In this document: positions 12,022 to 63,241 of the stretch, piece after piece
How the letters are laid out: each line of letters begins with the position of its first letter
Position numbering within the stretch: position 1 is the first letter of the stretch
Origin: Paecilomyces variotii
Lineage: Eukaryota
Direction: 5' to 3' (one strand)
Length of the DNA stretch: 64,000 bases
Assembly: GCA_004022145.1 (NCBI GenBank)
Contig: RCNU01000012.1
Made by a program: the position numbers and the translations under genes
Notes under the pieces: generated by a model
What the model was told of the DNA's origin: nothing
What the model saw: the letters and a program-made list of their open reading frames with translations, nothing else
Databases searched by the model: none

Positions 12022-12205
12022 ACGTGCTCGATTATTTTTTTGCGTCAATTTTTGCTTCACGCCGTTCCAGGTTGCTTACTACGGACGATGACCCGCTTAG
12101 TTCTGTTTCTATCACATGTTGGAACTAGAACTACTTAGTGAATTAGGTATACTAGCTGACTTTATGACCTTAAACGAAGTCGAATTGGGCTAAGTCCTTA
12201 CACCT

Positions 12206-12510: not shown

Positions 12511-12850
12511 TTCCTCGAACTTCGTTCAGCAAGCTGCTGCCTGCCGAATTAAATCACGTGAAAGTTTATCCCTTGACGGCTTGACTAAGTATCAACCAGC
12601 AAGAAACGACAACCCAAGTCAAGGAAGGATCTGAGAGAAGTATTCTGGCCTATGTTTTGTTGAGGTATGTCAACCTGCTTCCTACATGCAGCATATCCTG
12701 GTATTGGCTAAGCAGACATCATGGCTGACAGAGACAAGGTGTTAACTAACTTAACTAATTCGTTATACAAAGGTACAAATTTACCTTATCAGTCAGTGAT
12801 TACCTCTTCGAAAATTTCCCATTAGGGAAATTTCTTCGAGAACTTCACTG

Positions 12851-13460: not shown

Positions 13461-14530
13461 AAAATTTCTTCTAATAGAGATAGGTATGCCTTGACATGAA
13501 GTTAATGGACCCTGAGAACAATTTTCTGCCTGAAGAAATCAGAACCAATAGACATAGATTTCAATTGGGGCGCCCCTGCATAGTTTTCACCTTCATGAGC
13601 GATTTTCACTCGCCAACAGAGAAGTTTGACTGAATCTGACGTCTGCTCCGGGAGGGTGACATTGCTTCTAGAAGGATACCTTGGAAAACGGACAAGGAGC
13701 ACAAAATCCCGCACCCAGAATAATCTAGAAGGATGACCTGGGTCTTGGTGACCGGGCTGTCTCTGCGGGGTTTGTGTTGGTATTGGTGGATAGAACGCTA
13801 TAACAGCTTCGATTATTGATGTATGCTGTATCTATGCATAGCTAGATGATCTCCCTTCCAGAAGAGTTCCAGGCGATCAATGTAGGTTCGTCGTTTCGAG
13901 ATCGACCAATAATTAAGAGGCATTGCTAAGATCGTTGACATGCAGTTGGTTTCTACTTTTTGTGTTCACGTGCAGCGCGGGGTCTCATCCTTGCGATGCA
14001 AGGAATATGGCAGCTGATGGTTCCCAACGTCCAAAGAGAGTGAGCATCCCACCCAGTCAATGTGTATGAATACTGGACGAGTCCAGTGTAAAGGTGCAAA
14101 GACGCTCTTTGCGATATAGGTCCTCTCAATGGGGCATCAGAATGAGTAGGCTAGAAGGCAGCTGCACCCGAAAGATTCTATGGTATGGCTGTCAATCCGG
14201 GATACTCATGTCAACCGGCGACACCACATTGGTACGCAATGGCTACGGTACATTCTTTCAAGTCTATGAGGAGTCGAGGACTAACGGGGACATTATCCAG
14301 AACATTCCATCATCGCTCGACTTATGAGCCGACACGGACCGTACTTATCTCCGTACAGTGTGCAGTGAAGATGCCTCCGAGTGGGATCCGAATTTGTCTG
14401 TGCCTATAGTTTACTACTAACCAAGCCGGGCCGAACAGACAATAAAATGAAACTTGTGGCCGGCAGGCTTTGACGGCGTTTGATGGTGAAAAGCATATCA
14501 GAAGATCGACATTGCCGTCCCCGCAAGCAT

Positions 14531-14557
14531 CGGGCAATTGTCGGGGATATAGCCAAT
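14531..14557 (+). promoter_or_regulatory. AmyR site (CGG-N8-CGG) with adjacent CCAAT box in the agdA promoter
   Basis: CGGGCAATTGTCGG at 14531-14544 and CCAAT at 14553-14557, the layout known as region IIIa/IIIb in Aspergillus amylolytic promoters. Confidence 0.75.
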
Positions 14558-14921
14558 CATTGTGCACAACTAAGAATGACAGCCACAGCATCATGGACGA
14601 GTACGAACAAGTCACTCTGAATTTTGAAACAAACTCGCACCGGATAATTTGGGAAGAGAGGGCACGGCCTCAGATTCCACGCGCGACTCAGCGGATAGGA
14701 CATCTCTTTGCGTACCTGATCTTCTGTCCGTGTCCTGTCATACTACGGTACCTGCGTATTAGCATGAAGCTGCCGTCGCTCCGAGACGCAAAAGCCCCGA
14801 AAGCCGAAATTGACCAGGATAACAGATCAGAAAGAAGCGAAGACAAACAGAATACAAGTCATCTTCGAGACGCGGTTCTGCCTAAATCAGAGCTCCAGCT
14901 TCTCCGCAGTGCGCGGGCGGA

Positions 14922-15056
14922 CCCCGCAAGAATTAATAGTTAAACTGGATCTGGAAGGTCGGTAGAAACTCAACGGAGCTAATGTAATAATTAACATGTA
15001 TCGTGTATCATTACCTTTGCTAGCTTCGGGGAGAAAAGCGGGGGATCTCTCCGGGG
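14922..15056. promoter_or_regulatory. CreA consensus sites in the agdA proximal promoter
   Basis: CCCCGC 14922 (GCGGGG on minus), GCGGGG 15038, CCGGGG 15051. Confidence 0.5.
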
Positions 15057-15248
15057 TTTATACAATGAGGCTACAGTAGTAGTACAGAACATCTTGAGCT
15101 TTGCGGTTCGGGGACTCCCGATCCATTCTTGGCTCTGAAAGGTTATAGCATATAAGGTACGTGGATTTCCGGTGAAGAATTCGTTGCCAGCTTGTATAAT
15201 GTACAGTGACGGACTAGACAGCGTCTGACACCGGCATTGATCGACGAC

Positions 15249-18200
15249 ATGGGCGGTTTCACGCATTATATGCTGGCCAGCGCCTGGCTGCCTCTGACGC
15301 TGGGAGCGGCGATCTCACCAGCTCCAACTTCATCCACGGCGTCATGGGGACCAGTATTCACCGTGCCAGCGTCCGCCGACGAGGGTGCTCAGTTGGTAGC
15401 CAACATCAATGATCCCCAATCGGTCAATGCGCAAACGGTCTGCCCAGGCTATGTGGCGTCGAACGTCCAAAACAACGAATTTGGATTCACTGCTACATTG
15501 AACCTCGCTGGAAAAGCTTGCAATGTCTATGGGACAGACGTTAACTCTCTGAACCTGACGGTGCAATACCAAGCAAGCGACCGCCTGAACATCAACATTG
15601 GCCCAGCACATGTCGATGCTTCCAACGAATCTTGGTATATCCTGTCTGATGATTTGGTCTACAAGCCTACGGTTGATGGAACTGCTTCCATTTCACAGAG
15701 CGACCTGTTGGTCTCGTGGTCGAATGAGCCTTCCTTCAACTTCAAGGTCATCCGCAAGGCAAATAAAGATGTACTTTTCAATACAGAGGGTACAGTGCTG
15801 GTATACGAAAATCAGTTCATCGAGTTTGTCAGTGCACTACCTGAAAATTACAATCTCTATGGCCTCGGCGAGAGGATTCACGGGTTGCGACTGGGGAACA
15901 ATTTCACAGCGACCACCTATGCGGCTGACGCTGCAGACCCCATTGACGCGTAGGTTTTCCTCTGCAGTCTCCACTGTCATCTTCTTCGGTAGGATTTAGT
16001 TGACAGTTTGCTACAGGAACATATACGGAACTCATCCTTTCTATCTGGACACTCGATACTATGAAGTGGATTCTAAGCAGGGAACATATACTTTGCTCAC
16101 CACCAACGAAACAGATCAATCAAAGGAATACACTTCTTTCTCCCACGGTGTTTTTCTGAGAAATGCACATGGCCAGGAAGTTCTGTTGCGTCCCGAAGGG
16201 ATCACCTGGCGAACATTGGGTGGCAGCATCGACTTGTACTTCTATTCGGGTCCGACACAGGCTGATGTCACCAGGAGCTATCAGACAAGCACGGTTGGTC
16301 TGCCAACAATGCAGCAGTATTATACTTTCGGTTATCATCAGTGCCGATGGGGGTACCAGAACTGGTCCGTAATGGCCGATGTGGTCTCCTCGTTCGCAAA
16401 GTTCCAGATCCCTCTGGAGACCATATGGTAAGCTGAACCAGACGTTCTCATTGCAAGACTTGTCACTAACATAGTTCTCTCATTCCAGGTCAGATATCGA
16501 TTATATGAATGCGTATCGTGACTTCGAGAATGACGCGGTCCGCTTTTCGTATAGCGAGGGCGCGGAATTCCTTGGACAACTACACGAGAACGGCCAGCAC
16601 TGGGTTCCCATTGTCGATTCGGCAATCTATATCCCCAACCCCGAGAATGCCTCTGATGCGTAAGTGCCCCATAATATCCCCGGATGTAGCCTTATAAAAA
16701 CTCACAAATGTCGCAGATATGACGTCTACACACGCGGAGAAGCTGACGGCGTGTGGATGACAAATCCTGACGGAAGCCTATACATTGGAGCCGTCTGGCC
16801 TGGTTATACCGTGTTCCCAGACTGGCACAATCCCAAGGCTCATGAGTTCTGGTCAAATGAGATCGCAACATGGCACCAGAAAGTGGCATTCGATGGCATC
16901 TGGATCGATATGAGCGAAGTCTCCTCGTTCTGTGTTGGCAGTTGCGGTACTGGAAATCTGACTCTCAATCCTGTTCATCCTTCGTTCCTACTCCCCGGAG
17001 AACCAGGAGCTGTCATATACGATTATCCCGAATCCTTCAACGTCACCAATTCTACTGAGGCAGCCTCTGCGTCTGCCGCTTCGGTCAGTCAGGCTGCGGC
17101 CACAGCTAGCGCAAGCGCATCGACGACTACAAGCTATCTTCGAACAACACCCACACCTGGCGTACGTGATGTGAACCACCCTCCGTACGTCATCAACAAT
17201 GTCCAACCTGGACATGACCTGGCTGTTCATGCCGTATCCCCCAATGCTACCCACATTGACGGGGTCTCAGAGTATGACGTGCACAACCTCTGGGGTTATC
17301 AGATCCTCAACGCTACCTATCACGGCCTGCTGAAGGTTTGGGAAGACAAGCGACCTTTCATCATTGGTCGATCGACATTCGCCGGCAGTGGTAAATGGGC
17401 TGGCCACTGGGGCGGAGACAACACCTCGTTATGGGCGTACATGTTCTTCTCTATCCCACAGGCCCTGTCCTTCTCGCTCTTCGGCATTCCCATGTTTGGA
17501 GTCGATACGTGTGGTTTCAATGGGAATTCCGACGAAGAGCTGTGCAACCGCTGGATGCAGCTCTCTGCCTTCTTCCCTTTCTACCGTAACCACAACGTCC
17601 TGTCAGCAATTTCTCAAGAGCCATACGTGTGGGCTTCCGTCATTGATGCTTCCAAGGCCGCCATGAAGATCCGCTACGCGCTGCTCCCTTACATCTACAC
17701 CCTATTCTACCTCGCACACACCACCGGATCAACCGTTATGCGTGCCGTCTCTTGGGAGTTCCCCAACGACCCATCCCTCGCCGCAGTCGACACCCAGTTC
17801 CTGCTTGGGCCCTCTCTGATGGTCGTCCCCGTCCTCGAACCACAGGTAGACTACGTCAAGGGTGTCTTCCCCGGTGTCGCCAATGGCGAGGTCTGGTACG
17901 ACTGGTACACCCAGAGCGTATTTGATGCAAAGCCCGGCGTCAACACCACCATCTCCGCTCCTCTAGGCCATATCCCCGTCTTTGTGCGTGGCGGAAGCAT
18001 CCTCCCCATGCAAGAACCCGCTCTAACCACACGAGACGCGCGAAAGACACCCTGGGCCCTATTGACTGCTCTGAGTGCAAATGGCACTGCCTCCGGACAA
18101 TTATATATCGATGATGGAGAAAGCATCACTCCTAACGCAACTCTCAATGTCGACTTCGTTGCTTCTAATTCGAACCTCGTCGCATCTCCGCGCGGCTCGT

Positions 18201-18397
18201 GGGTGGAAAAGAATCCCCTCGCGAACGTGACTGTTTTGGGAGTTCCGACTGCGCCTTCGTCTGTGACTTTCAATGGTGCTGCTGTGCCGCGGGCTTCTGT
18301 GGCATATAACTCTACCTCGAAGACTCTATTCGTGGGAGGACTGCAGGATTTCACCAAGACTGGCGCCTGGGCTGATAAGTGGGTGCTCAAGTGGTAA
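15249..18397 (+). CDS. agdA: Secreted alpha-glucosidase, GH31
   Basis: Signal peptide MGGFTHYMLASAWLPLTLGA; introns 15950-16016, 16428-16488, 16660-16716; motifs GYHQCRWGY, WSDIDYM, catalytic WIDMSE, GHWGGDN, FFPFYRNHN. Confidence 0.95.
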
Positions 18398-18706
18398 GGA
18401 AGAAGAGATGGTTTGCAATTTCATAATGATAATCTCCGCTGGCATGTTATTCATCTGATTTATATGATGGGAAAATCTAGTTGGGATATATCCGAGATTC
18501 TTGAGCTAGGCTCATGACCTTATTCAAATGAAATGTTTGTCATTGCTAGCACAGGTATTTAGATGCTTGTTATATATGGAGATCAAAATATATACTCGAT
18601 GCATATCGACATCAACATACTGCCTATCTTGATCAATATCCCGCTTATATCTGGCTCGTATATTTCCCATGCTTTCTCTTGGAAGCAAGCCAAGATTTTA
18701 AATATG

Positions 18707-20811
<2,105 letters not shown>

Positions 20812-30508: not shown

Positions 30509-33500
30509 TGAACTGTGGATACTATGCCCTAAATTATTATGTACTATGTATAGATGCGTAGTATCAAAGCAGAATAAATGTTCCGAAAACAGTTATTCTA
30601 AAGAGGAAGTGGGACATTTCTCCATATCCCTGTGATGTCAACTGGTAGTCACAGTTGTCCGTACTATATACATGGCAAACCGTTATTAATGTGGTCATAT
30701 CCCTTCTACAATCGCTGTAGCTTTATGGAACTAGTAGTGTATTGTCTTGTATAGCGGACCAAGGAATTTATCCGCTGCAGTAACCTCTACATGGAAACGG
30801 ATAGTCAGGTAATATCATACCAAAATCTTCCTCCACCGATTCTATCACCGATTCTATCTGGCATTAATTATCAGTTGCAGAGAAGAACATATCGTTGCGG
30901 TTCAAACTGCTTTGCTTCCAGACAACCTTTCAATGTGAGACAACAGTTATATCCCTGGATACAGAGGAAACTTGCCTAAGATGAGAGTATGAATATGCAT
31001 ATCAACTATCCAAGAACGGACTTGAGACCAAATATTTGAACACTATCCTATGTCCTAATGGAGACAGACATATCCTTTTCTGCTTTCTTAAGAATAGAAC
31101 ATAGTATGATCACAGGCTGACTACAAGGGCTAAGGTCTGAATCCTTGCAGTTTGCTGTCGCTCCTACCTTCCACTAAAGAGTCAAATAGTGAAATAGCCT
31201 CACAAGCAGTGACTGTAGGAAAGTGCCGCATCCATAGATAGGGAGAAATGAGACGATAAGTGTGTTTATCAAACACCGTATTTTCTAATTGTCGTAATCG
31301 GGTTAAACCAGTAGCAATTGCTGCTATACAATTTGGAAATTCGACGACAGCAAGCAGATGCCAACGCTTCCTGTCCGGTCACATGAGCCATGTGCATCTT
31401 TCTAGCAGGTCGATGACGCACCGGAGCACAGGTATCAGAGCGGATGACCGCAGATATCAGGAATGGCACACGTGGTTCCAAAAGTGCAGGTTAATGACAC
31501 ACTAGGAAGACAGTTATGACGCAGACTCTATTCGATACATTATTGCATTGGTGCAGATATGACAGCTCGAGACACAGGAATGTGCTGCTGCATGTGGGTT
31601 CCAAAACCTGGTGAATCAGATCGGTCTCACAGTAAAATCATATCGAGATTCTGCTTCAACGCCTATGATCTATCATATCTGATCCGTTGGGAGAACTTAT
31701 CTGCTCTGGGGGGCGCCATTATCAGATAGAAAATATGCGGGACGTTGGGACTTGTCGGACAATGCAAGCGATACGATCCTTGCTAAAGCCTGAACTCATT
31801 CATGGTCTGCCTGTATCGATCTCGCGTCAAGTACAGTTAGTCTATACGATAGATGTGAAGTTACACTTGAGCCCTTCAGGATGGCCGTACTGGTAGAGTT
31901 AAAAGGGGGTTTCAGCGGCAGCTCATCAATATGCGTCTTTACACCAGGCAAGATGGTAAGAAGGGACGTCACCAGGTGATGGAGACTAGGTTTGACCCCT
32001 TGCTATCGAAACGTGCTCTCTGTCCATAGAAGAAATCTTTTTCTAGATCTCTTTACTGATGTCTGCTGAGCGAGCCGAGCCCGGTCTCCTGCCGCTCTGA
32101 GGCCGCTCTAAATCTCATGATCGAGACTATAGATCTTGATTCAAGTCGTCACGATAGCTTCCGTTGCTCATCAGACCCATAGGTCTCAGAAAGGAATGGA
32201 CTATGTAAGGTTCAGGATCAGTATGTATGCAGTCGTGGAGTCACAGATGGGGAGGACCGAGGCTTTCCCAACGAGTCTCTTCGAGATCTCCATAAAGGAA
32301 TAGTAAATTCGTACTGTGTCGCAGATCTCTAGGTTTCTAGAGAAGTCAATCGTTAGTGAAGCGGACAAGTCAAACTACCGTGATGCGCGATTTCGGCACG
32401 GCGGCACAGCCCCTTTATTCCAGAAAATGTGAGTACATTGGTTTCTTCTGTTTACTGTATAATCTCGGCCAACAGAATAGGCCAACTACAGATACTTACA
32501 TGCACCACAGACAAGTACTCGTGCGTAAAGCATAAGAACATACACCCACCATGTAGCAAGCGAAAAGATCAAAGCAGATGAGCAACGATCTCGAAGCCAT
32601 GGATACAATAGACTGTCCTTTCGCCAGCCATATTAGACTACTACCTACCCTTCTTTACCAGAGATCAAGGTCGCGAAGATTCGGAGGCAGGGCTGTCCCG
32701 AGTTCCCGAATTCCTAATCTACACTCCCGAGATGGAGCGGCAATAGTGGGAACCCCTGGATCCTCTGTACGATCTTGGATCTCGATTGGCCTCCGGATGA
32801 GGCAGAGTAGATTCTGGAACATCGACTCGAACGGATGGTTTCCCCCAATAATGGATCGGAGGGAGATCTGTCAAGCGGCAAGATCAGTTTGTTATATCCA
32901 CCAGAGTGCTCCTGTCATTTGCCGGCGCCTGATCCGGACGTATTAGGGGGTATAGAACCGCGCAGCCCTTTCTATGACACCTGTTCGTTCGAATAATAGC
33001 ATCCGCAGGTTGTCCGCCGAAGGCTGCAAGAACCCCACAGCGTGGCAGTCTTACTTTAAAAGTTTAGACACCGAAGCTTTTCTCAAACTCACAGCCCCAG
33101 CCTTGAGCTTTTTGTCTCAGGCTGTTCCCACGGGTCGAGAGCGGGACGGTTTAGGACTGGGAAACCTTCTGACGTAGACGCCAAACCCAGGGCGGTTGTT
33201 CTGTTCCGTGTCGAGAATTTAAGTAGTACTGCAGACTATCTAGTGTTTTCCCAAATCTTGGGAACGCATCGCCCTATGGCAGCGCGAGAATTTGGGGTTG
33301 CGGCGCATGCATCGAAAGGTGGTTCCTGTCTCCTGCAGTATTCCAGTTATCGATAATATCGATCGATACGAGAATGTCTGAAGTTTGAACCGTTGCGGTC
33401 TCTGTCCGTCCGAGGAGGAGAGTTTGGGTCCTTGTTCGTCTGGACGCTCAGATCCTGGGGTGGCCGTAGCCCCCGATGGTGTTAGAACTAGTATACTTAC

Positions 33501-40400: not shown

Positions 40401-43400
40401 AAATCCTCGACTTTGCACCAATAAAGTGAGGCTGGGGAATATCGCTGTGGAAGAAGTGTCAGCCTAGAGCCTACCGGTAGTGTCCAAACGATATCTGTCT
40501 GGAAGGTCGAGCATTCAAGTGGACCGTATAAGCGGGAAATTGGCTATAGATGCCTAGTCATCAAGTCTAATTTCGAGTCTTGACGAACTACTGTCATTGA
40601 CGTGGAAACTCAACGAGCCACTTCTCCCACTTAGCGCTAGCTGCTCGAGGAGAACCGACCGGAAGGACGACTTGAACCTGCTCCGCCACGCTGGGAAGCC
40701 AAAAGCATGATGATCGAGAGCACTAGTGACCCAGGAAATACTAATTCTTGGGCTGTCAAAGTAGTTTGTTTCCCGGGCTTCCCAGGCAGTCATTTCACTG
40801 GCCACTAGACACATTTCTGTGGTCGAGATCATATGCGTATCCATGGTTCTAATCACTCTTATTTTGAATAATGCCTTATATTCGGCAACTCATTCCGGGT
40901 TATACCAGACTGTCCCAACATTAGGATTTGCGGGGTTCTGTTAGGTTGGAACATCCATTCTCTTCGAAAACAGTGTTCGGCCATGTAGCGATAGTTCACT
41001 AAGACGGTCTAGAGACCTCGCTTGCATGCATGGTCCATGTCATGCACGCGCCTGGGCCTTGAAGAGACATCGCGCTGACATGTTTCAATTCCCATCACGC
41101 AGTCTGACCTGGCCAGGTCTAAATTGCATTCTGCAAGCCATGAAAGCCACGGTTTTCCCCAGAAATATTGTCCAGTCGTGTTTGTATACATAATAATATG
41201 CCTTGGCAACAACTCTACTTGAGAAAAAACGGACATCGCCACATTCCAATACCATCTACCGCTTATTAGGTAGGTGGTTACGAGAGTGCCAGGTTTAAGG
41301 ATATATCTAACTGGGCCAGATGCCAAGGCAAGGTCTTCCCCGCTACAAGTCAGTATGTACGTACTATGTACTAAGCAACTGTGTGGAGGTTATCTAGCAT
41401 TTTTCAATAAGGTAGTTCGGACATGCTCGCACGCCCTGCATATGCAGGAAGGAGGACCTGCTGCCCGTACAGAGTCCGGTCAACTTCCCTGCGGACATGA
41501 GATGCATGCATCTTCTCCTGGCTTGTTCTCAAGTAGCACAAATCAGAGCCCCCAGGAATATCATCACAATTGTGGCTTTTATTTTCCCTGCTGAATACAA
41601 AGAGAGCACGCTGATTACGGAAAATCTTTCGACTCTCTTTTTTGTCAACGATGTGACATGTACCGTGTACGTCGACTCGCAGCTGCGGTGGCAAAAACTG
41701 ATACATGCCCGAGCATGTCCGCAGAGATCTCTTATCATTGATCGGTAATATTAATCAGTGAACATCTTACCTGGTCGTCGTCTGCCTTACATCTAGGATT
41801 CGTCAGCAGTTGGCTAACACGGGTCTAGATGATTCTCCTGTGTGCAGGGATCGCCAATAGCCATCTACTTTTGCTCCCGTCAGACATGATTCCATCCTAC
41901 TTTCTACTAATCTCAGTTCTTTACATCATCACGAACAACTATCCTACCAGAACATGCATGCTCAGTGATGATGCCATACTATGATTCTGCGTCCAGCCGC
42001 GAGGTTAATCCGCATACTTTGCTCTCCTTCCCTCTCTACAGATGGATATCCAGGCATATAAGTTATGTCTCTCTTGGGTATTGAGTGCTGGACATCACGA
42101 TGCTTCAGAGTGCAGCGCCACATGGCTTTATCTTGTCTAGTAGGATCTTTACCACACCGGGAACCCTATCTATAATTTATCGCCAGTCTGCTCCGGATGA
42201 GGAATGGAAATACTGCAAATATGCTCAAGCGCATGAGGAAATCCAGTGTTTGAGGCTGTTAGTCTCCTATCCCGAACGCGACTCACCTCTCGTGTATACC
42301 TCCTGAACTACGAGATGATGGTATTAATTACTGAGAGAACAGTTTGATATAGAGTATCGGATCACAATTACACAAGGTGAAATGCATTTTCTCATTCCTC
42401 CTTCTGAGGCCCCATCTCTGCAGGCACGGATTAAAGGTAGCACACTACTACAGATTAATGGGCATTGCTCACAGATAATGGCACACAGCAAGCATACTAC
42501 CGCGATCACAGGAATGGAAGCTCCGACGATACGACGACTCTTCTTGGAAGTATCCACGCCTGTAAATACTGGACAACCGGCTCAAAAGCAGAGAGCTTCC
42601 CTCCTAAACCATCAAAAGAAATGACCACGATTCTCATCTTCCCAAAGAGAATATTTACCACCCAAGAAACGAGGGACCAGGCAATTCAGCAGATACGTGA
42701 CAATGTGACATTCAGACCCCCAGCCCATGCAGGGACCAGCGAGCAGAACCTTAGGTTTGAAGGTCTATAGATCTTCCATTGTAGCATTCAGCTTAGCATC
42801 TTCTGCATCGGCAAGACGGTATCCACCAAATAAGCAGTACACAGGCCTTCCATCCCCTCGCTTAACCGTATCTCGGCAGTTGTTGAAAACACCAGCATGA
42901 CCGCACAAATACTGTACAAGTAGGTCAGAAGAAAGCTCAACGAAAGGAAAATCCAGCTCGAGAATGAAGCATTAGACTCTCGCTACCTGTATTAACATAC
43001 CTTTACGATTTCAGCATAGGATATCCCTCCTCCGTAATCGAAGTGAAGTATCTTCTTCCCATTTCCTCCCCGTAGATGAGTCGAAGTACTCCTCCATATA
43101 CTGTACGCCATCCTCATAAGTGGCCTCAAAAAGAATTTCCCGGAGACAAAGAAGAAGAAGTCATCTAGGACGGTATGAGATCGATCACTTTTCAATATGG
43201 TTGTGCGCTCCAGCTGCCTCAAATTTTTAAAGCGGAAGAGATCGGACTATCGTCTGTCTGGACTCTACAGAAGGATGGACGTCCGTCATCACTTTTCTGT
43301 TTGTTGATATCATTGTTATTCCTGCTTCTTATCAATTCGATATCTACTGGGAGACGACTGGCATTTGTTTTCTTTCTTTCTTTCCTTTCCTTTCCCAGAC

Positions 43401-45141
43401 CTCAGCTTTAGTTAGGGCTTTCGCTATTGGAGAAATCAATGCCATTTTTAAACCGAGCGTTACTTTTAAAATGGTGAACAAGTGAATCTTATCTGTATAT
43501 TGGAAATTACTTGGATCTTATAGTACCCGGAGGTTAGTGTCAATTTGAACTTTTGTTATAGTTATAACTGTATATCTCTTGTTATCCAGTTATTCACATC
43601 ACGTCTTGTCCAACCAAGCGAGGGTTTGCAAAAACAAGAGCAAAAAAGAAAAGAAAGAAAAAAAGAAGAGGGGAGAAGAGAACCTACAAGAAACAAAGAG
43701 TCATACTAAGAGCCGCGCAGGAAGATACACATACAATCCATACTCAATTCCATCCTCTTTTCCACCGCGCTCTAAACCAGCTCTCTCTCGAAGGCATAAA
43801 AGGAATGCCCATGAACCGAACTCAGGACCTTCACGACGACGTTGGGACTTGAAGATATAAGTAGGGTCCAGTTCATCATTGACGATGAGATGAATTTTCG
43901 AGATTTTCAATTTCTGTTAAGATATCCCGTGATTGTATACTTAGTTAGAAGGTCCTTGCTGGTAATTTATATTCGCCGTCCTCGAATATTCATAACATAA
44001 CTACAGTAAGTACTTAACGTAGTAAAGTCAGTATAGAACTAACCGAATCCATCTATATATGTTATTATTAATAATTAGTTAATAACAGTCCAGGAAGTAA
44101 CTAACTAATGACATTATGTCGAATCCTATAGTACGGAAGCAAGGTCTGACCTGGACGACTTGAATTGCTTGCTTGCTCGCCTCTAGGTCTAGGAGGGGGA
44201 TCTGATCCAATATTTATCTTGTGGCATACAAAAAAATCTAGTAGATCCTGGTAATCTAGTAATCTAGTGGTATTCCTATAATCAGGATTCAAAGAATCTG
44301 CCGCAAACGGATGATTGACAGATCACCTGGCGTTTGCTTTGTACGCCGACACATTATAGTTCTCAGCTGGAGTATGCAAAGGAGTAGTTGTACAGCCTAG
44401 ATTCTTGACTTAAGCGACCTTGCTGGAATGACACTTCGGAGATTGAAAGAAGAAGAAAAAGAAAAGGAAAAAGAAAAAAGAAAAAGACAGAACATTGCCC
44501 TGACGACCTACATTGCGCTTAGAATGTGGATGCTCCAGTTCATAGTTAATAAGTAACAAGTTCTCCCAAAATACATGTGTTTCCCCCTTGTCGGCTAGAT
44601 GATAGTGAGGGGGATGTGATTGTACAGTATTCTGGAATCAGACTACAAGCAAAGTTTACAGAAAAGCTTCGTGAACTATGTATATATCCCATTGCAGATT
44701 GAAATCTAATAACAGATAGCCACCCTGACCCATTGATTAAAGAACCTGACACCTAATGTTCTATGCAAATGAACAAAACTCACAGTAATAATGGTAATAA
44801 TGACAAGGACTGCTTGCAAAGCAGACGAAGTGCAATGTGGCAGCATCCAGACGGAAACAACCAATCCTTCCTCCTAACAAGATGTCAACCAGGGCTGCGC
44901 AGCCCCGGTGTGCCTTCATACTGAAAACGCGCGTTGTTGGACGCTAAGATAGCAAAATACCACCCCGTTGAATAGAAGAAACCAGGTCAAACGGGTGCAA
45001 TGCAAGACAACATCCAGGGAATCGTCTCAGAAAAGCGCAATATGTACATCCAAGGAACAGTGATAACAATACCACATATCCCCCAAGATCCTACGAGTCC
45101 ACTCGAAGATCTATAACCGGCGTGCGCGTCACCAGGCAAGA

Positions 45142-47331
45142 TCACCATGTCTCCTGCAGGGAAGTTAGTCATTGTAGCAAAATCTAATAAGACATAAAAA
45201 GGCAACTTACAGCAATGTACTGGCCAGCCTCCTTCTTCTGCTGCCAGAAGGAGTGCGCCTCCTCACGGTTGAGGTTACCCTTGGCCATGGCTACGTCGAC
45301 CAAAGCCTCCTCGACACCTTCTCCCATACCCTTGCTGCTGCCGCAGACGAAGATACGTCCATCAAGGGAGTTGATGACAAACCAGACCAGGTCTGCCTGG
45401 TGACGAACCTCTTCCTGGACATATCGACTCTCGCCGCGGCGGCTTTGAACCACCTTCTTCACTTTGTCTTCATGAACTCCCCATTCGCCACTGTACAGTT
45501 CATCCAGGAGAGAGTCACGAATACCCTGGAGCACCCAGACCTTGTTGGCGCAGTTGGCGGACTTCAGGCGTCTCTGGACGAAACCACGGAATGGAGCAAT
45601 GCCCACACCAGCACCGACCAACAGCATAGGACCGTCTGAAACGAACTCCCTGGCGAGCGGGTTGGCCATCAGGCCTCGGAACATAGGCACGTGAATATCA
45701 AGGGAGCGAGGGTCTTTACCCTCCCGTTCAGCAGCCATGACCTTTTGGGCAAGACGCTCCAGGAAACCGGATCCCACACCGGTCCTCTTTCCACCTCTCC
45801 AGTCGTCAGCCTCATGCACAGTAACGGCAATTTCAATTAGACGACGCGACTGCTCTCCCTTGACCGTCCGTGAGATTTGAGGGTCCTGAGAAAGAGAGTA
45901 GAATCGCGGCATAAGCTGGTTTAGGGCGGAGAGAAGGTAGTCGAGCGGCGGCTGGCTCGAGGGGAACGCGGTCAACAGCTGCGACAGCGTAATGTGGCAC
46001 CCGGTGCGGAGATCACAAAAAGCTCCCTGGCCCTGAGCTGAAGACAGATACATGAGAATCTTCTTCTCATTGGGCTCTGAAGCATATTCTGCAAATAGTC
46101 GGAAAAGAGGCTTGGTAGGCGGGTAACTGGTGATGTCCGAACACCAATTCAAGACCTCCCTTCGTGTAGTAACCAGGTCCCGCGGCTTGTCCTCGCCCCA
46201 AATCGTGGGCCAGCGACCCTTGGTGGTGTGCAGCGTGATCTTCTTGTCGCGGATAGCCTTAGGTATGCCGAGAAGGTCGAACACCATTTCCACTTCTTCC
46301 TCATTGTTCTTGGGGCACACCCCAATGGCTCCTCCAACGACAAAATCGACGTTTCCTCCTTCCTCGGGGTAGTCTGTCACGTCGATGTCGAAGTGGTAGG
46401 TGCGCTTCTCCGCACCCGGCCTGGTAAGCTCTCGCGCATGGTGAAGAGGCGCCCGGTAGACCTCATAGGGAGGATGGGGCTGGACGAATCTGGGAGGATG
46501 GTCCTCGGGAGTCGGTTTCATGTCAATGGCGCTGGCCGGAGCCGGAGAGATAGTGACTGTCTTCTCCGGCAGTGCGACAATGTTGGTCAACTCGCTGTCC
46601 AGACTCAAGTGGCCCAGCTTCAACCCCAAACTCTGGAAAGCTTTGTTCGTGGGCGGCACCACAGGATGGGCAGTAGAGCTAGAGCCATTATCCCTCAATG
46701 GCTGGCTCATGCAGCATCCGCCGCCGCAGCAAACTTTCTCGACCAACTGTGTACCTCCAGTGCCAACCTGTCCGAGGATTCTCTGCATGTCATCCGCATT
46801 CTGTGAGATGAGCACGGTCGACGCTCGTCGTCGACCAGGCTCCCTGGAGGGTTGCTTCTGTTCATCCCGTAGCTGCTCCAGGCCATCGTCTGACTGAGGC
46901 TCCGTCGCCGGGGTGGATGGAGCTTCCGAGTCACTCTCCGAAAGATTCACCGACTGCGACGACTGCGAGTCCGGAGAGGCGTCAAAGTTAGGGTCCGATA
47001 CTGTCAAATTGGGAATATCCCGCGGCTCTTCTGGAATCGGATTGTCTGGGTGCGAGGTCGAAGATTCTGGGACCGCAGAGCGATCATGCTGGCGGGTCAA
47101 CGTCGACGCCATCGCGGCCGACGACGGCGAGGGGGCTACCACTGCGTGCACTGCGTTCATTCCCAAGTCAGCAATGGCTCTTCCATGTCGCATTGAGTGT
47201 TCCTGAAGACTATCCCAGTTGTGATAGGGGTTCAATGCCCAGTGGTGCAGCGGTTCCATTGCTCCGGAACCTCACCAAGGGAACTGAAATTCTTGCCACC
47301 GCAGTATGGATAAAGAAAAAAACATACCCAT
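45142..47331 (-). CDS. FAD/NADPH-binding reductase of the CPR/methionine-synthase-reductase (FNR-like) type lacking the FMN/flavodoxin domain, about 651 aa
   Basis: RFYSLS, GVGSGFL, GAGVGIAPFRGF, YVQE, FVCGSSKGMG; last intron 45154-45210 gives the terminal ETW*. Proposed 4-nt first exon (ATGG, 47331-47328) and intron 47151-47327. N-terminus is low-complexity with a CCGGGCC motif. Confidence 0.88.
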
Positions 47332-48463
47332 CGAGCCGTGAGGTAGTCTTCTGCCAAAGACAAAAGTAGTCGTCCGTCTCAGAGGGAGTGAAGAGGATAT
47401 CCGCCGGGAGAGGAGGCGAGACGGTGCGGCGAACAATGTGACGGCTGGACGGAGGGAAGACACGGTGAGATCATATAGTTCAGCAAGGCCAACAGCGGGC
47501 GGAGAGCGGGAGCGTGTTTAAAATAGATTGGTGGAGATGGAGAAGACGGCAGCTGGCATCTAGAATAGGAGTCGAGTCAACGCTGGGGGGGGAAAACAGA
47601 AACAGATCCCGAAACGGAGAGAGAGAGAGAAGGTGTGGGATGAGGATGGAGTGTTGAATCCGACGGGATTCCTGGATGGGGCGAACGATGGCGGAATGGC
47701 GGGAGGTGGAGTGGGTAAGGCAGTTGTAATCAGTAATACGGAAAGAATAATAAATTACAGAAGACGCTGGAAAGTTAAGCAGAAACCCTTTTTTGCTTTG
47801 CTGGTACTTAACTTACTTAGTTACTCCAGATCGGGTGAAATACCTCGGTTGCAGAATATGCCTTCTGTTCACGCAGTCAAGTCATGCAAATGCAGCTGAT
47901 CATGTGGTGGAAGCCCTAGAGAACAAGGGAAAATGAATTAATAAATTATTAATTATTATCTAAGGGCAAAGTACAGAACAAATGCGTAATAGTGAATAAT
48001 ATCCAGACATTGGCCGCCCAAGCAGGTTCTTTCGACACTTTCCCCAGCCAAGCCAGCCTGTTCCATGGCTTCACTGTCATCTAACATAATTAATTACCAG
48101 TAACTAACTAGTAGTAGTAACTGCTAGAGTACGTTGAATTACCGATACCGCCACTCACGCTCGGTTCGCAGCCCGTTTGCCGCCCTGCCGAAGAAGACTG
48201 CAGCTGGCAGGAAACGGTGCATTTGGACTATCCATTATTGGGATCATTATTGGTCCACGATGGGCAAAGGTCCTCATCTTTTTTGCTGGAATGGGAATAT
48301 CAGCCCAGCTGGGATTTCTGTCTGGTATTACTACTATTTCCCCAGACAGAGTCCAGAGGAACGGCCGCGGAGAAAGGTAACCGAGCAGATGACCGGCAGC
48401 AGTTGGGCTGCCCATCACTGACAGACTTGCAGGCAGTATGTATTGACCAGGATATCTTAGCCC

Positions 48464-51424
48464 GATCAGATAATCGATGGCCGTCTCTTTCCCCATACCT
48501 ATGATTCTACAGTATCCTAACCTGGTGGCCAGAACAGGACATCGGCTGCGTTCCTAATCGCTACTATCCCCTGCACTACGGCCCAGTATTATTTCCCATC
48601 TTGGTCTCTCCAAGCGTCGTACGAACGCCAACTCGTTGGTGATAATAATAATTACCGACAGGCCGTTCCGGTTTGTATCCGTTGCTGTATTGGGACGAAT
48701 AATACATTAGCCGAGTCGGAAACCACAACGCCGGAAACGCTCGATACGCCACCCCAGCAAAAAAGAACAGGTATCTAATCAGATCGCCTCCCTTGCATTG
48801 CAGCACGCCCAAGACAGCTTGACAGCCCAAAAATGGAGAGGATGAATGAAAACATCGATCAGCAAGAGTGATTTATTTTTATCGCCCACCTAATCTGTCT
48901 GATGCAGCCGAGAGAATTGATTATTGTCGCGCAGGTTAGTTACATAGCCTTCCGAGACAGGCCCAGATCGCAGTCGGCCGCGGTGGACACGTGCGCGCCA
49001 CAATACCAAATCCGACGAAACGTTGACGAGCTGTCTGTCATCGCAGCGGATCAGATAAGGAGACAGGAGGAATTCCGCCGGCTCTGCCAACAGCCGAGTG
49101 GACTCACCGCGCAACACGCCATGGCCGTGAGAAGCAATGAATGACGGACTCACCGCTGGTTCTGCGGTAACTAACCATGATGTTTCTTGTCCAGGAAGAC
49201 GATCGTGTTAGATAGTTAGTCTAGCGGATTGCCAGGGAATCGTAAAATATCGTAATATCGTAATAATGGGCAAACTGGACCCCGAAGGCCTTTTTTCGGT
49301 GGTCGCAGGGCAATGGTGGGGCTGGCCGATGTCGGCTAGTTCAGCCCCACGGAAGGATCATATCAGATTAGACCGTCGCTCCCGACCCTGTGGTTGGGAT
49401 GCGCCTAGAGTTACAGACGGGCTTGATACAGCTACTTGTTCGTCGTACGACTCCATACCTCCATAATAATGGAGTCGCAGAAGGCTGAGAAGCCCATTTT
49501 CTACTCCACCACGCTAGAATCCCAATAGTAGCTCCAGAAGAAGATCGAGTTAGCTAAAGCAATGCGCTACATGATCCTGGGAACATCCGCTCTTCCCCGG
49601 TTCCAAATTCCCGGGGCGCGTGCTGATCATCAGACACCGGAACGTTCGCGCCAGGAAGTAAGTATCTATCGTAGACATGCGGAAAAAGCAAAAAAAGTGA
49701 CAGCCAACATGCGGGGGATGGATATGACATTGGACATATCACGGAAGTAAATTACCAGGGGAGGTCCCGTCATTTGCTTTCCTCGGGCTGACCTGACTGA
49801 GACACATATTTAATGATCTGACTGGGTTGTTCGACCCTTCCCAGCAAACAGATGGCCGACTAGCAACAGACACGGAATGGAGACTGACGCGGACGGCATC
49901 TTCTTCCAATATTGCGATCCTGGTTCGTCATGATCGTCCAGGGCTATGGTATGGAGTATCTAAGTAAATTAATTAATTACATCCACCCAGAGACCCAAAC
50001 GATGCCAAGGCGACGCAAGAAAGGGGCCGGTCGTTTGACAGCCTCATTGTCAGGCTTCAGCCTCCAGCAAAGTTATCTGATCGTGCTAATCCAGGACGGG
50101 AAACAGTCGAATGGCGCTGATCGGACAGGGATAAGAGCCATCTACGGAGTAGTCAAACATCAACAAGTATCCAGTCATCTTGCCCCTTGTCACCCGATCG
50201 AAGTCGATGGTCAGGGAGAGAATCATCCCCCTTTCCTTCCCTTACCGACCTGTAGAGTTAATTCGCTTCGACTGTCTGACGTGGACACTGTCCTCGTGTT
50301 GTCGCGTCTTTCGATCTTTTTGTTTACTCTCTGTATGACTCCCAGACGCGGTCAATCTTGCATTAGTACCTCTTTGTTTTCTTTTGCCTCCTTGGTTCTG
50401 GCCGGGGGACGATCATCCTAGACTAGGAGAAACGTTGCAGCAGAGTAGACTAACTACTGTCGAGATCCCCAGCGCTTTAGAACAGTCCCAATGTCTCGCA
50501 GGAAACTTTGAAGCAAGCGATATACTTGTCAACAACTTATTATTCACTCCATTCAACCATTCATATCAATCAACCCTACAAGAATTACAAATCCCTATCC
50601 CTTTCACATCACCAAAAGGAAAGTACCTAAAACCCACATATTCTCCTCGCCCGTATCGTGTCACGTAACACAACGGCATCGAGCATATAAATCTTCCTGC
50701 GAGATCAGCCCGATACTTTACTTTTCTTTTTTCTCTCCACTAGGAGCAAGAATTGATATGATCAAGCCACGTGTCGCGCCTTCTCTCACATCACATCACA
50801 TCACAACCATGTCATTTGCGCTACGATTCGATGCGCGGATTGAATTCAGAGATTCTATCAGTCCTCTTTTTTTTTTCTCCCTTTATTCGAACCCTCTCGT
50901 AGGGACTGAAATGGAAAAAAATTGAAACCGTCCTTTTTCTCAGCGCTTATGGTGCTATGAGCTGGATATTCAGCCAGCCCTCTTTGCCTGTAGTCTACAG
51001 AAGAAAGAGGTTAAATTGCCATAATACCAACCGGATCCCGTTCTGCGAACATAAGTAATTAATTACTGTAGTTTCTTCCAGCCATATCTAACTAACATGA
51101 GATAACTACCTACCTATCCAGCTATACACGAAAATGTCTCTCTTGGGCATCAATACCAACCTCAACGTCAACATAAATATAAACACGTATTTTGTATCTT
51201 CACTAGTTAGTCGATGGATGTCCTCCTTTCCTTTTTTTTTTCATGTCTACCCCTCACAACGCCATGAATTGTTTCCGGAAGATCAAGGATCACCCTGCAA
51301 CGTAACTATAACTAATTTACGTCGCGTGCATATCATATCTTATCAGATCGTTCTTATTTCTCGATATGTGTCCCACTTTATACAGCATAACACGCTAGGC
51401 TATGCTATGTGTCTTTATCAGATC
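48464..51424. promoter_or_regulatory. Cluster of five GATCWGATAA sites matching the SreA-type GATA consensus ATCWGATAA, upstream of the reductase
   Basis: ATCAGATAA at 48465 and 49050; TTATCTGAT at 50073; TTATCAGAT at 51340 and 51415; one-mismatch variants (ATCWGATTA) at 48776 and 49362. Confidence 0.65.
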
Positions 51425-58920: not shown

Positions 58921-61055
58921 TTAAGCGCTGGGCGATGGGCGCTTGAACGGGTGCGCTTCCGTATTACTATTTAGGAAAAATTGAACGGTTAGTCTAAGAT
59001 CTGTCTCCGTACCTGGTGGCATCGTTGTTGTTGGGTGGGGGATCCATAGGCCGCGCGGAAGCCTACGCGTCTTCGGGGCCAAGGACTATATAATAGTAAG
59101 ACCACGAGTCGGGAGATCAACTTACAGGACATATTCGTCCAAACTGACAACGTCTGGCTCGGAGAAAACGAGGTAGAAATACTTCAGCGTCTCTGCAAGC
59201 CAGAAGCTCTCCATCTTATCCGACTTCCCGGTCTGGCGGGAACGGACATCAGTGATGCCAGCATTCGCGATGTCCGTCTTGGAGAGGTTGTCGATGCTCT
59301 GGAACATCCGCCATGCAGCGTCTTGATATTTCTTGTCGCCAGTGATCCGGTACATAATGAAGACAGACTCGATTGCCTCCGGCCTACGTCACTTTATTAG
59401 CTTGTGGACTCCAAGGGGAAAAGAGCCTCCCATGGGTGTTCTGACGGGGGCCTGCACAGCTACATGAGACTTACCTCAAGATGTATCGACTATCTTTGAC
59501 TTCCGTGATTCCAGGCTGGAGGCCGTGTTCCTCAATCAGCTTCTTGGCTTCCACTGCAGCTTCCTCGTCCGACTCGGTGCCGCCGAAACTGAAGTGCCGG
59601 CGGATGTCATGGTACCATTTCATTTCGTCCCAATCGCAATCCTCCTTGTGACTGCAGACGGAGGTATAGAAAATTTCAGGCATCACGCCCGTAGGCATCG
59701 AATCATAGGCCCAGATACACCCATCTGTCAATTTCCGTGCCGTGGCAAGCTCCTCAGGGCGATCGAAGATTCGCGCTCCGATACCGACCATGCCACCAAT
59801 GAAGCAAGTGAGATGTTGAGCTTGAGGCTCCAGCCCGATTCTGGTCGAAACGCTAACTTGTGTATTTCCAGCTATGAGAACGTCTTCGCCGTTCTTCGTC
59901 ATGGGACGGTAGAGCAACTTGTTGTTGATCTGGTCCATGGCGGCTTGGTACATATTTTTGTACTGCTGCAAACGGCCTCCTAGGAGTAAATATTCCTTAG
60001 GGAGATATTCATACGTGGAATCAGCCATTCCACCCATGGTGAAGCGGCGATCGGAGAAGTCGAGATGTTGCGCATCTACCATGACAGGCCACAGGCCGGG
60101 AATTCGGGTCGTTTTCTGGTGGTCTTCTAGGACATTCGTGACTCTCTGGACGGCATCAAAGAACTTCGGATCACCGGTGAGTTGCGTAAGACGTGTGAAC
60201 TCCATGCTCAGCGAGCCCAACTCTGCAAGCAACGTGTTGCGGCTAGGCCTGATATCCAAACCTACTGCGGACCTAGAGATTGGTCAACATTATGTCGTCT
60301 CACTTTGCGCGAAGCTTCGCCGTCTCCTCGCCAACTGTGTGCAGTTCTCACCTCATCCAGTCCCAGCGACTCTGCGGCATTCTATTCGGGGTATCGAAGG
60401 CCTTGTACAGCATTTCACCCAGCTGCTGGGCCTTCTGCAATAAGATCGGGTGCTTCCCTCCACTGAGATCGTATGCGCCGAGGAATCCTCCTACATAGCG
60501 AATGGTGGTTTCGAAGACGTTGAGCTGGGTGTCGTGCGTGGTCGTGAAATCGATCTTATCGAGCGCTGCCAGAGCCTGCTCGAAATCGTCGTCCAAACCC
60601 ATAATGATCAGCGAGTCAAGCGTGTCGACTAGCGTCGCCGCCCATCCACTGAAGGTGTTCCTCCAGAGACCTGTTATGGGAACCAGCTCGTCCTTCAACC
60701 AGGCATGCTCCTTGTATCCATTCCAGGCGTGTTGGAACGCCTTCTTTACGGCGGCCTGTCTGTGCTCCCGCTCCTTGCGGTCAGCTGCACTTTCGCGAGG
60801 AAAGTCGTACTGGATCTTGGGGATCGCAGGCGCATTTCCAGTCGGGAGAGGGATGTAGGAGGAGACGGGGTAATTATCCGGGTGGTGTTTCCAGTGGACG
60901 GTCTCCTCTACGACAGGATCGGTTTTGGTGGATTGTGCCTCGACTTTTTCCGTATTGGAAACGTCCGCACCAGGCGGTAGACGATGGAAGAGGATGTAAA
61001 CAAGGAATATCAACACGAATGTGGCTATAACCACATTCTTGCGAACGAACAACAT
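58921..61055 (-). CDS. Class I alpha-1,2-mannosidase, GH47
   Basis: Type II anchor; HAWNGYKEHAW, ATLVDTLDSL, FETTIRYVGG, ADSTYEYL, HLTCFIGG, LRPE, MESFWLAETLKY, NTEAHP; introns 60273-60351, 59384-59474, 58967-59125. Confidence 0.95.
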
Positions 61056-62129
61056 GGCTCAGTGGTACTGCCCTGAAAGAATATATTCTATAAATTCAAT
61101 TCACGAGTAACTGTTTTGAAGTGAGTGAAAGGCTCCAAGAGCATATGGATAAAAGAGTGTATGTGTGAGATTCAATGCAGAATGCCTGGAATACACATCC
61201 GACAGACAAAAAAAAACGCGACGATGGTGGCTGTCTACAGACAGACATGCCACTTTTCAAGAAGACAAAACACAAATAGGGGGGAAATGACAATGATAGT
61301 AGAAGCCAGAATGATAAGCAAAACAGGACGCAATGTCCATTTCTCCAAGCCACCACAGTATTATTCCCCATGGGAGCTGTTGGTGGGAGGAGCGTTGTCT
61401 CAGTATCCCGCGATCAGCGCCCAGACTCTCCACTGTTTGCGCGTGTCACGGCCTGTTCTGGACAGATTCTCCCGTTTCTTGCCTCGCCCGGAGTCCACTC
61501 GCGGCTTGGCGCTGAGGCGGCCAACTCTACGATCGTCTTTTGTTCCGACTCTGGGGAGACGGCAAAACACGAGCACTGGGCAACGCTGGAGATATCGAGG
61601 GTCAATGCGACTGATAGACGGATCTATCTATAAGTAGAGATTGAAGGCATCGACTCACCGCGCAAAGTGGTGTGTTGCTGTTGCTCAACATTCACTCTTG
61701 ACTATATACGTTTCATGATTGCCAGGATTTCAAGCGACCATATCTACACATCTGCTTGATTCGAAGATATACTGTTGCTTGTCTCTATATATATCTGCGG
61801 TTCTATAACTGTTGCCTGGAATATCTGTCATCTTTGGCCAAAGCAGAACGCTATATTGTCACTGTGCCGTGGTTCACTATACCTCTCTACTATTCCCAGT
61901 TGATATGTCATACTTGTCTGCCTACTGTCATACTGCCTAGAGTCATACTTCCTCGTCTTGTCTTTATACCAATTGTTTGAACTCTCTATTGTACATTGAT
62001 CTGAGTTGGTTACGTGCCTTTTCTTTCTGTCAGCGGCCTTTGCTTCCAGGGCCCCTTTGGAACGGTTATACGTCTTATCTTGGCCTTATACTAGAATCAA
62101 CCCCTTAGCTGGGTTAACCCAATATCAAA

Positions 62130-63241
62130 ATGACCATCACAGGGTATGGCTCCTTCCCTGCGTCCATCTTCATACTACGATCATGTTTCTGAGCAATTCA
62201 ACTAACCATCGCTACAGGGTTTTCTTTATCCCCTCAAACCCCAATGCTCCCAGCGCTCTTCCAATACTGACGGAGCGTCTGCGCTCCGTCTTCGCGGAGG
62301 AGCCTATCCCTATAGGCCGCTGGGCCCTGGAACACAAACTGATGCGTGACACGCCTTCCTGTCTACCAGCTTCAGCCCACGCTCCAAACCCCGTTCCGAA
62401 ACCGAAATATATGCAATTTCTCTCCCTCACCCACTACCCGAATCACGGATTCATATATGCTTCCGAAGCAACGGACCTACCTCAGGCATCTGTGGCAGCA
62501 GGCGGAAGTCACAGACAGACTCCTTTGCTGGGGACGATATCTGCTGCAGCTGGGCCGCCACAAGCGCAAGCGCAATCACCGACAGCCGCAGCAGGAGGCG
62601 CTGCGCCGTCGTCCAACGCATCCCAGTCCGGCATGATAATGCGTACTGTCCCTCTCTCTTCCTATGGTCCGCTCTTCCAGCATTTCATGCGCGCCTGCGA
62701 ACCTTTCTGGAACCATCGACACACCGTCACCGTCCCAGCTGGGGTCGTCTACGACATCGGTGATTTTCGCCTCCGCATAGGTGATGTACGGCAGACATTT
62801 CCCCAAGCACGAGCACGGGGCACAGTCGTGGAGGTGGAATGGAAAGGTCCATCACCATTAACCTCCTCCTCCTCCTCATCCCCTGCCAACTTCAACGAAG
62901 ACGGCTCATCCGATTCCGGCATCGACGTCACGACAGAACCGCTCGACGACTCCGAAATCGACGCCGAATATGCTCTTGTCGCGCAGCTCATCCGAGATTT
63001 CTGGTCCCAGCTAGGCATCGAAGGGGCCAGAGAAGCCATTCTCGTTCCTGACGTGGGCAAGGAGATTAAAGAACAGCACCGCAGGCGCAGAGCTGGTGAG
63101 AACTTGAAAAGAAAGAAACCCCGCACCCACGACGACGACGAAGAAGGATGGGGATGGTGGGATATAGAAGAGGATAAGAACCCGGATGCAGGTGTCGATC
63201 TGGCGAGGCAGTATATGGAGATATACAGGTTCAATCGATGA
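62130..63241 (+). CDS. med20: Mediator of RNA polymerase II transcription subunit 20 (Med20/Srb2)
   Basis: Exon MTITG (62130-62143), intron 62144-62217, then VFFIP..GRWALEHKLMRDTPSCLP..MQFLSLTHYP..YDIGDFRLRIGDVRQ..RGTVVEVEW..DLARQYMEIYRFNR, matching Pezizomycotina Med20 as recognised by eye. Confidence 0.8.

Follow-up and report, generated by a model that had tools for sequence, protein, structure and literature searches.

A flavodoxin-less NADPH reductase of Paecilomyces variotii downstream of conserved SreA-type sites: a candidate for intracellular iron handling

The closest described counterpart of the gene considered here is Afu4g10100 of Aspergillus fumigatus, which is listed among 49 genes of the SreA regulon in a 2008 supplement (PMC2610380, Tables S1 and S2) and falls there into expression cluster 3 together with hapX, freB and mirC. 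Its log2 values from 10 to 240 min after iron addition were 0.75, −2.75, −2.13, −1.66 and −0.47 in the wild type, with −2.75 being the value at 30 min, and −0.06, −0.79, −0.50, −0.42 and −0.40 in the sreA mutant, and its promoter was reported to contain three perfect and six near SreA sites (PMC2610380). Here, we analyzed the orthologous locus in a 64,000-nt stretch of Paecilomyces variotii DNA (assembly GCA_004022145.1, contig RCNU01000012.1; hereafter, the window), where a minus-strand gene encodes a reductase with domains for flavin adenine dinucleotide (FAD) and NADPH. The A. fumigatus protein (also AFUB_067210) is 73% identical to it, and further counterparts are AN2042 in A. nidulans and SPAC1783.01 and SPBC12C2.03c in Schizosaccharomyces pombe. 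We tentatively propose that this NADPH reductase belongs to the ascomycete iron regulon and has a GrxD-linked role in handling iron cofactors.

Published pull-downs with the monothiol glutaredoxin GrxD enriched the A. fumigatus orthologue by log2 7.62, 4.11 and 2.49 at −Fe, +Fe and high Fe, respectively, with nine peptides, in all three replicates and as a top match in iron starvation; it was lost, like Bol3 and Nbp35, when GrxD lacked its Trx domain, and the supplement labels it "(Methionine synthase reductase)" (PMC6762210). The grxD gene is reported to be SreA-repressed as well. In addition, AFUB_067210, which we equated with Afu4g10100 by synteny of the neighbouring genes, has an SrbA chromatin immunoprecipitation peak 291 bp upstream and a value of −2.76 in the srbA mutant (PMC4223079), and the protein is lower in a dicer mutant (bioRxiv 2022.07.28.501871). 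The gene is not in the supplements of PMC5946477, which cover selected genes only, PMC10294635 makes no mention of it, and we found no functional study or mention of the cysteine motif described below in the main texts of open-licence PMC and bioRxiv.

The sequence-only reading of the window had reported five perfect ATCWGATAA sites upstream of the reductase gene, and all five were recovered, at 48465(+), 49050(+), 50073(−), 51340(−) and 51415(−), each extended to GATCWGATAA. Its two one-mismatch copies proved to be four (48776, the overlapping 49360/49362, and 51097), and its 4.7-kb upstream interval shortened to 4.37 kb (4368 bp), since the mRNA of the upstream cytochrome P450 gene ends near 51699. 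Of the sequence that had been claimed as non-coding, RNA contigs assign ~0.6 kb to N-terminal coding sequence and an intron. From the genome rate of ATCWGATAA (762 sites in 30.1 Mb), 0.11 sites are expected in the 4368 bp, in line with the earlier rough estimate of ~0.1, and the Poisson probability of five or more is 1.3e-7, or ~9e-4 once all such windows genome-wide are counted. When the interval was shuffled 300 times with its dinucleotides preserved, five sites were never reached (maximum, 2), and the cluster was the densest among the first 100 of 231 genomic GATCWGATAA listed, the runner-up having three sites. Over the whole window, one-mismatch sites were not enriched (40 vs 36 expected). 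The five sites lie 1.1, 1.7, 2.7, 4.0 and 4.1 kb from the ATG. The P. variotii genome encodes SreA, with two GATA fingers and a cysteine region between them (G000:C12 near 1999222); its hapX has one perfect SreA-type site upstream, and its sidA promoter has none in the 1.5 kb examined.

Next, we compared 62 metagenome loci, 34 of which had at least 3 kb upstream of the gene and represented 22 independent groups. This footprinting in orthologues, suggested along with the original site cluster, placed sites upstream in 18 of the 22 loci. Specifically, the 3-kb upstream regions contained 36 perfect sites vs 1.35 in shuffles, 28 of them with the 5′ G, and the top de novo 8-mers in the upstream sequence corresponded to the SreA-type motif; there were no perfect sites in 100.8 kb of downstream sequence or in 81.9 kb located beyond 3 kb upstream. 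The nearest upstream open reading frames (ORFs) of 19 loci showed no mutual homology, and because the upstream neighbours vary in this way, the sites follow the reductase. Given the published A. fumigatus data and the conserved footprint, repression by iron through SreA, as first proposed from the sequence, is very likely in P. variotii; it is not new, SreA control of the A. fumigatus orthologue being already on record, though buried in supplements.

The start of the gene had initially been placed too far downstream. RNA contigs contain an intron at 47151-47327, which sets the ATG at 47331, in agreement with a protein match. This intron was supported by two of four RNA runs, and the intron at 45154-45210 and the mRNA end at 44688 by three of four; run X2 was unspliced throughout the region and DNA-like. 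The RNA contigs leave the 5′ end of the mRNA unfixed, with X1 extending to 47766. The spliced product comprises 651 amino acids (aa), ends in ETW and matches the Paecilomyces variotii database protein P0172 with 0 mismatches.

The original description of the product as an FAD/NADPH reductase without a domain for flavin mononucleotide (FMN) was correct: at E ≤ 0.001, Pfam detected PF00667 and PF00175 and nothing beyond them, flavodoxin being absent. The FMN flavodoxin domain was found in none of 13 family members scanned, a survey covering forms of up to 1208 aa, and in none of the precomputed Pfam annotations of 120 + 120 matches. All of the diflavin-type FAD/NADPH motifs (RxYS, GxxS, GxGxAPF, SR..YVQ, CG and a C-terminal Trp) are present, at R417-S420, G459, G514, S571/R572/Y578, C604 and W651. 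AlphaFold2 (123 sequences) modelled the region from residue ~160 onwards as a confident core, preceded by a disordered N-terminal arm with a pLDDT of 50-60 around a CCGGGCC motif, and the core matched cytochrome P450 reductase (CPR) and, with a TM-score of 0.76-0.77, the FNR module of human MTRR. In the ESM Atlas, a full-length orthologue query retrieved the family's own cluster, MTRR and NDOR1, and the N-terminal arm gave no usable match. The arm also carries RRAST, which we take to be a phosphorylation consensus of the protein kinase A type. The reductase is probably soluble and cytosolic: the search for a membrane anchor was negative (best 19-residue hydropathy, 1.4), and AspGD records cytosolic orthologues. 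A sulfite reductase alpha label was rejected, with scores far under the NCBIfam cut-offs and a separate Met10-like gene present in the genome.

The CCGGGCC motif, missed by the sequence-only reading, as were the descent of the enzyme from MTRR and its ties to GrxD and SrbA, contains four conserved cysteines (C142, C143, C147 and C148) and occurs in all 120 top homologues and in 76 of 109 further proteins. The remaining further proteins are cysteine-spacing variants or apparently truncated gene calls; among the cysteine-less homologues of 511-547 aa, seven of nine inspected start at a Met directly after the motif and were therefore treated as truncated. Other cysteine groups occur in Tortispora, Neolecta, Pneumocystis and one of the two S. 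pombe paralogues, the other of which has scattered cysteines only. Motif counts from the metagenome loci were left out of the evidence, the motif having been one of the patterns by which those loci were found. The fourth cysteine region of P. variotii HapX reads CCGG-x5-GCC, and a genome-wide search for CCGG-x(0-7)-GCC, which is blind to intron-split motifs, returned five matches, of which the two in long frames were the reductase gene and HapX. The others were discarded: a further CCGGGCC-coding match, at C34:970413, overlaps an SRP54-like gene out of frame, and those on C3 and C12 are confined to frames of 58 and 42 residues. The likeness between the reductase and HapX motifs may be convergent rather than homologous. 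Peptides of the HapX cysteine-rich regions (CRRs) bound [2Fe-2S] in vitro (PMC12390756), and we consider that the four-cysteine motif of the reductase probably binds an Fe-S cluster or iron. A complex prediction for residues 100-651 with P. variotii GrxD, FAD and [2Fe-2S], run without alignments, scored 0.08 and was given no weight in either direction.

We then placed the family in a quick tree of 76 rows (14 family members, 57 other representatives of 520-900 aa and five genome paralogues). The family formed one clade (SH-aLRT, 100) that nested with fungal MTRRs (95, 94), namely those of Mucoromycota and Olpidium, apart from the CPR, Tah18, Met10 and CYP505 paralogues. In reciprocal searches, Phycomyces MTRR had human MTRR as its best match in PDB and the reductase gene as its best match in the genome. 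On these sequence relationships, the reductase is a descendant of methionine synthase reductase (MTRR). Members were found in Pezizomycotina, Lipomycetaceae, Tortispora, Schizosaccharomyces, Neolecta and Pneumocystis, with no named basidiomycete or Saccharomyces-type yeast among the matches listed (best 120 or 150, many unnamed). Cobalamin use has been placed in non-Dikarya fungi (PMC8085122), so the MTRR substrate has probably been lost for this enzyme.

The core of the reductase is expected to oxidise NADPH at FAD and, because the FMN domain is absent, another one-electron exit would be needed. A labile [2Fe-2S] exit or switch is suggested by the four-cysteine arm, the GrxD link and the co-regulation with grxD. 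We envisage that, after loss of the FMN domain, a labile HapX-type [2Fe-2S] cluster would have been acquired by the CCGGGCC arm, to be loaded or unloaded by GrxD; electrons would pass from NADPH through FAD to the arm cluster, which would act as a one-electron exit or switch, or to a GrxD-bound cluster. The enzyme would thereby serve cytosolic iron or Fe-S handling under iron or oxygen shortage, loosening or recycling clusters or re-reducing iron cofactors as MTRR re-reduces cobalamin. We favour Fe-S or iron-cofactor handling on account of the cysteine motif, the descent from MTRR and the connections to GrxD and SrbA. In its fullest form, which we regard as doubtful, the proposal is that an orphaned ascomycete MTRR, its cobalamin use lost, became an NADPH-FAD-[2Fe-2S] enzyme whose HapX-like arm replaced the FMN domain and which, with GrxD, is the missing cytosolic iron-releasing reductase of iron starvation, acting on Fe-S clusters or ferrisiderophores.

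Several points weigh against this proposal. The GrxD pull-down table includes ribosomal proteins and other likely bystanders (PMC6762210), and the enrichment may come from abundance or indirect binding. No published Fe-S binding, activity or phenotype was found in open-licence PMC and bioRxiv, and motif scans showed no enrichment of SrbA, AtrR or HapX motifs in the window or in the orthologues. Four of the 22 orthologous loci have no perfect SreA-type site, and two of these have no near site either. The tree was a quick build, with the family on a long stem (1.55). In Pneumocystis and one of the S. pombe paralogues, the cysteines are few or spaced otherwise. The resemblance to HapX covers a short, glycine-rich stretch, and mutating HapX CRR-D, the region matched by order, had little phenotype (PMC12390756). 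Finally, the motif sits within a low-confidence part of the model, which leaves proximity to FAD unsupported by it.

The sequence-only reading had suggested a ferrisiderophore reductase, and a fungal enzyme of this kind, or a general ferric-chelate reductase, would pass electrons from NADPH through FAD, and possibly a [2Fe-2S] cluster, to Fe(III)-ferricrocin, -ferrichrome or -ferrioxamine, joining the activities of bacterial siderophore-interacting proteins (SIPs) and FhuF in one chain. We consider this rather unlikely, although parts of the idea held up: according to PMC10500206, the reductive release of siderophore iron has yet to be identified in fungi, the reductase gene shares SreA and SrbA control with sit1, and the [2Fe-2S] cluster of FhuF is held by vicinal cysteines (PMC8068687). 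There is some distributional support as well, in that the only named budding yeasts among the best 120 matches are Tortispora and Lipomycetaceae, lineages reported to retain hydroxamate siderophore synthesis (bioRxiv 399394), and a possible siderophore transporter is retained in Pneumocystis (PMC4764891); this yeast distribution, however, is confounded by early branching and rests on those best 120 matches. Other parts failed, as there was no SIP or FAD_binding_9 match in Pfam and no SIP model among the NCBIfam matches, the cysteines are arranged as CC-x3-CC and not as the C-C-x10-C-x2-C of FhuF, no siderophore gene occurred among 20 window ORFs scanned, and the unrelated upstream ORFs of the 19 orthologous loci reveal no link to siderophore clusters. 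Moreover, Saccharomyces cerevisiae and Cryptococcus neoformans import siderophores. No orthologue was determined in either of them (PMC6762210), and the reductase is retained in Pneumocystis, reported to be itself without siderophore synthesis. Expression is also unlike that of siderophore genes: repression of Afu4g10100 was transient (−0.47 at 240 min vs −1.67 to −4.69 for cluster-1 genes; PMC2610380), and with HapX locked in its starvation state Afu4g10100 fell (−0.97) while sidA rose (+0.56) (PMC12390756).

The reductase could instead act in trans as the electron donor of cytochrome b5 or a flavodoxin domain and so feed iron- or oxygen-dependent enzymes such as sterol oxidases, desaturases and P450s, being raised in iron or oxygen shortage, with the cysteine arm as a sensor or degron. 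The FNR-like core is intact, and Met10/Met5 provides a precedent for an FMN-less module with flavodoxin in trans. The gene is, furthermore, a direct and hypoxia-induced SrbA target beside cyp51, erg25, erg3 and erg5 (PMC4223079). We nevertheless judge this role unlikely, as the protein lacks an evident membrane anchor, CPR-, Tah18-, Met10- and CYP505-like proteins are separately encoded in the genome, and the adjacent P450 gene is kept in only one of the 22 loci, for which reason the P450 was also rejected as a partner or as the target of the SreA-type sites. A further possibility concerns the sites alone: the reductase gene would be under iron control, yet several of the five would be surplus or act on a non-coding or alternative-start RNA from further upstream, whose read-through of the promoter may itself repress the reductase gene. 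A low-depth spliced RNA on the same strand (48481-49137) does appear in runs from two studies, its intron containing site 2, and a second low-depth contig covers 50200-51032; besides, two P. variotii sites lie 4 kb away, a distance at which the orthologues have none. Contig depth, however, is in the tens vs ~1200 and gives neither level nor start, no ORF in the spliced RNA exceeds 72 aa, and the sites travel with the reductase as its neighbours change, so that this would alter the wiring and not the target. We think it quite improbable, and the spliced RNA is possibly a non-coding or alternative-start transcript. The features of the locus are collected in Table 1.

Table 1. Features of the reductase locus (positions in the window)
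Feature	Position	Strand	Evidence and remarks
Reductase mRNA	44688..47766	−	RNA contigs X1, X4, X10; 5′ leader at least 435 nt; two introns
Coding exon 1 (start codon)	47328..47331	−	47150-47328 joint in X1, X4; spliced frame = P0172
Coding exon 2	45211..47150	−	RNA contigs; spliced frame = P0172
Coding exon 3 (C-terminal ETW + stop)	45142..45153	−	Joint in X1, X4, X10
RRAST, residues 109-113	46816..46830	−	185/229 homologues; ~30 residues ahead of the Cys motif
CCGGGCC, residues 142-148, putative [2Fe-2S] site	46711..46731	−	Disordered N-terminal arm
FAD_binding_1 (PF00667)	45778..46482	−	Pfam E 1e-45
NAD_binding_1 (PF00175), SR..YVQ NADPH-type motif	45325..45636	−	Pfam E 5e-9; alignment to CPR
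SreA-type site 1	48464..48473	+	1.13 kb upstream of ATG; motif scan
SreA-type site 2	49049..49058	+	Within intron of low-level upstream RNA; motif scan, RNA contigs
SreA-type site 3	50068..50088	−	In 21-nt block identical in orthologous locus L008
SreA-type site 4	51340..51349	−	4.0 kb upstream; link to reductase gene less sure
SreA-type site 5	51415..51424	−	4.1 kb upstream; ~0.3 kb beyond P450 gene 3′ end
Low-depth spliced upstream RNA	48481..49137	−	Intron ~49035-49107; joint in X1, X4
Upstream cytochrome P450 gene	51699..53783	−	Delimits intergenic region; domain scan, RNA contigs

Additional observations were made in the orthologous loci and elsewhere in the window. Loci L002 and L012 have an intact CCGGGCC, yet their 3-kb upstream regions are devoid of SreA-type sites, perfect or near, and SreA-type regulation may have been lost there. 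In the 2-kb upstream regions of the 22 loci, TGTACAAA occurred in 11 (1.0 expected) and ACCCCACC in nine (0.9 expected), making them possible sites of a second and a third regulator. A GH47 mannosidase recurs beside the reductase in four of the 22 loci and Med20 in two (window 59471-63241; loci L001, L002, L012, L016 and L017), an adjacency that is old synteny, with no functional link seen. Within the window, one perfect and three one-mismatch SreA-type sites fall inside 55 bp (31675-31729), upstream of a homeobox gene and ~1.2 kb past the ORF of an iron-containing alcohol dehydrogenase. A spliced plus-strand RNA without a long ORF (42000-43549; alternative acceptors at 42343 and 42353) is perhaps the 3′ part of that homeobox gene. 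Just 3′ of the reductase gene, a short element (44117-44353) attracts many high-depth, loose-ended contigs from each of the four runs and resembles a dispersed repeat. More distant are a NACHT-ankyrin NLR-like gene (2319-6048) and a starch-use cluster with a Zn2Cys6 factor, a GH31 alpha-glucosidase and a GH15 glucoamylase (10709-20022).

What is new here is the conservation of the sites upstream of the orthologues, the MTRR origin, the loss of the FMN domain and the conserved CCGGGCC with its likeness to HapX. A gene that lies under SreA-type sites across filamentous ascomycetes, is bound by SrbA and has a product that copurifies with GrxD is a candidate for intracellular iron mobilisation. 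One soluble protein thus bears both on what reduces siderophore-bound iron in fungal cells, the gap stated in PMC10500206, and on the source of electrons for the removal or transfer of [2Fe-2S] clusters by GrxD under iron starvation. If correct, our proposal would provide an example of a repurposed enzyme of the B12 pathway and of a small Fe-S arm standing in for the FMN domain of a diflavin reductase, an architecture undescribed in open-licence PMC and bioRxiv texts.

Compared with known systems, the P. variotii locus is closest to that of Afu4g10100, with which it shares the domains, the motif and the amylase-homeobox-mannosidase neighbourhood, whereas the upstream neighbour is a GABA (gamma-aminobutyrate) permease in A. 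fumigatus and a P450 in P. variotii, and the sites extend over 1.1-4.1 kb in P. variotii, the A. fumigatus scan having covered 2 kb. With MTRR, CPR and NDOR1/Tah18, the reductase has the FAD, connecting and NADPH domains in common, but it lacks their flavodoxin/FMN domain and has the disordered arm with RRAST and CCGGGCC in its place. The HapX cysteine-rich regions likewise contain four cysteines within a short flexible stretch, CCGG...GCC occurs in both proteins, both genes are SreA-repressed and both proteins GrxD-bound; in the reductase, however, the spacer is five residues shorter and the motif is joined to an enzyme rather than to a bZIP factor. Bacterial SIPs of the YqjH/ViuB type are also iron-repressed and cytosolic and use FAD/NAD(P)H chemistry, and the bacterial ferrisiderophore reductase (FSR) FhuF is iron-repressed and cytosolic with a vicinal-cysteine cluster, putative in our reductase, which differs from both in its CPR-type fold with a connecting domain, the lack of a family match and its location outside siderophore loci. 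The enzyme therefore stands outside the intact diflavin reductases, SIP and FSR, and it may work like SIP or FSR.

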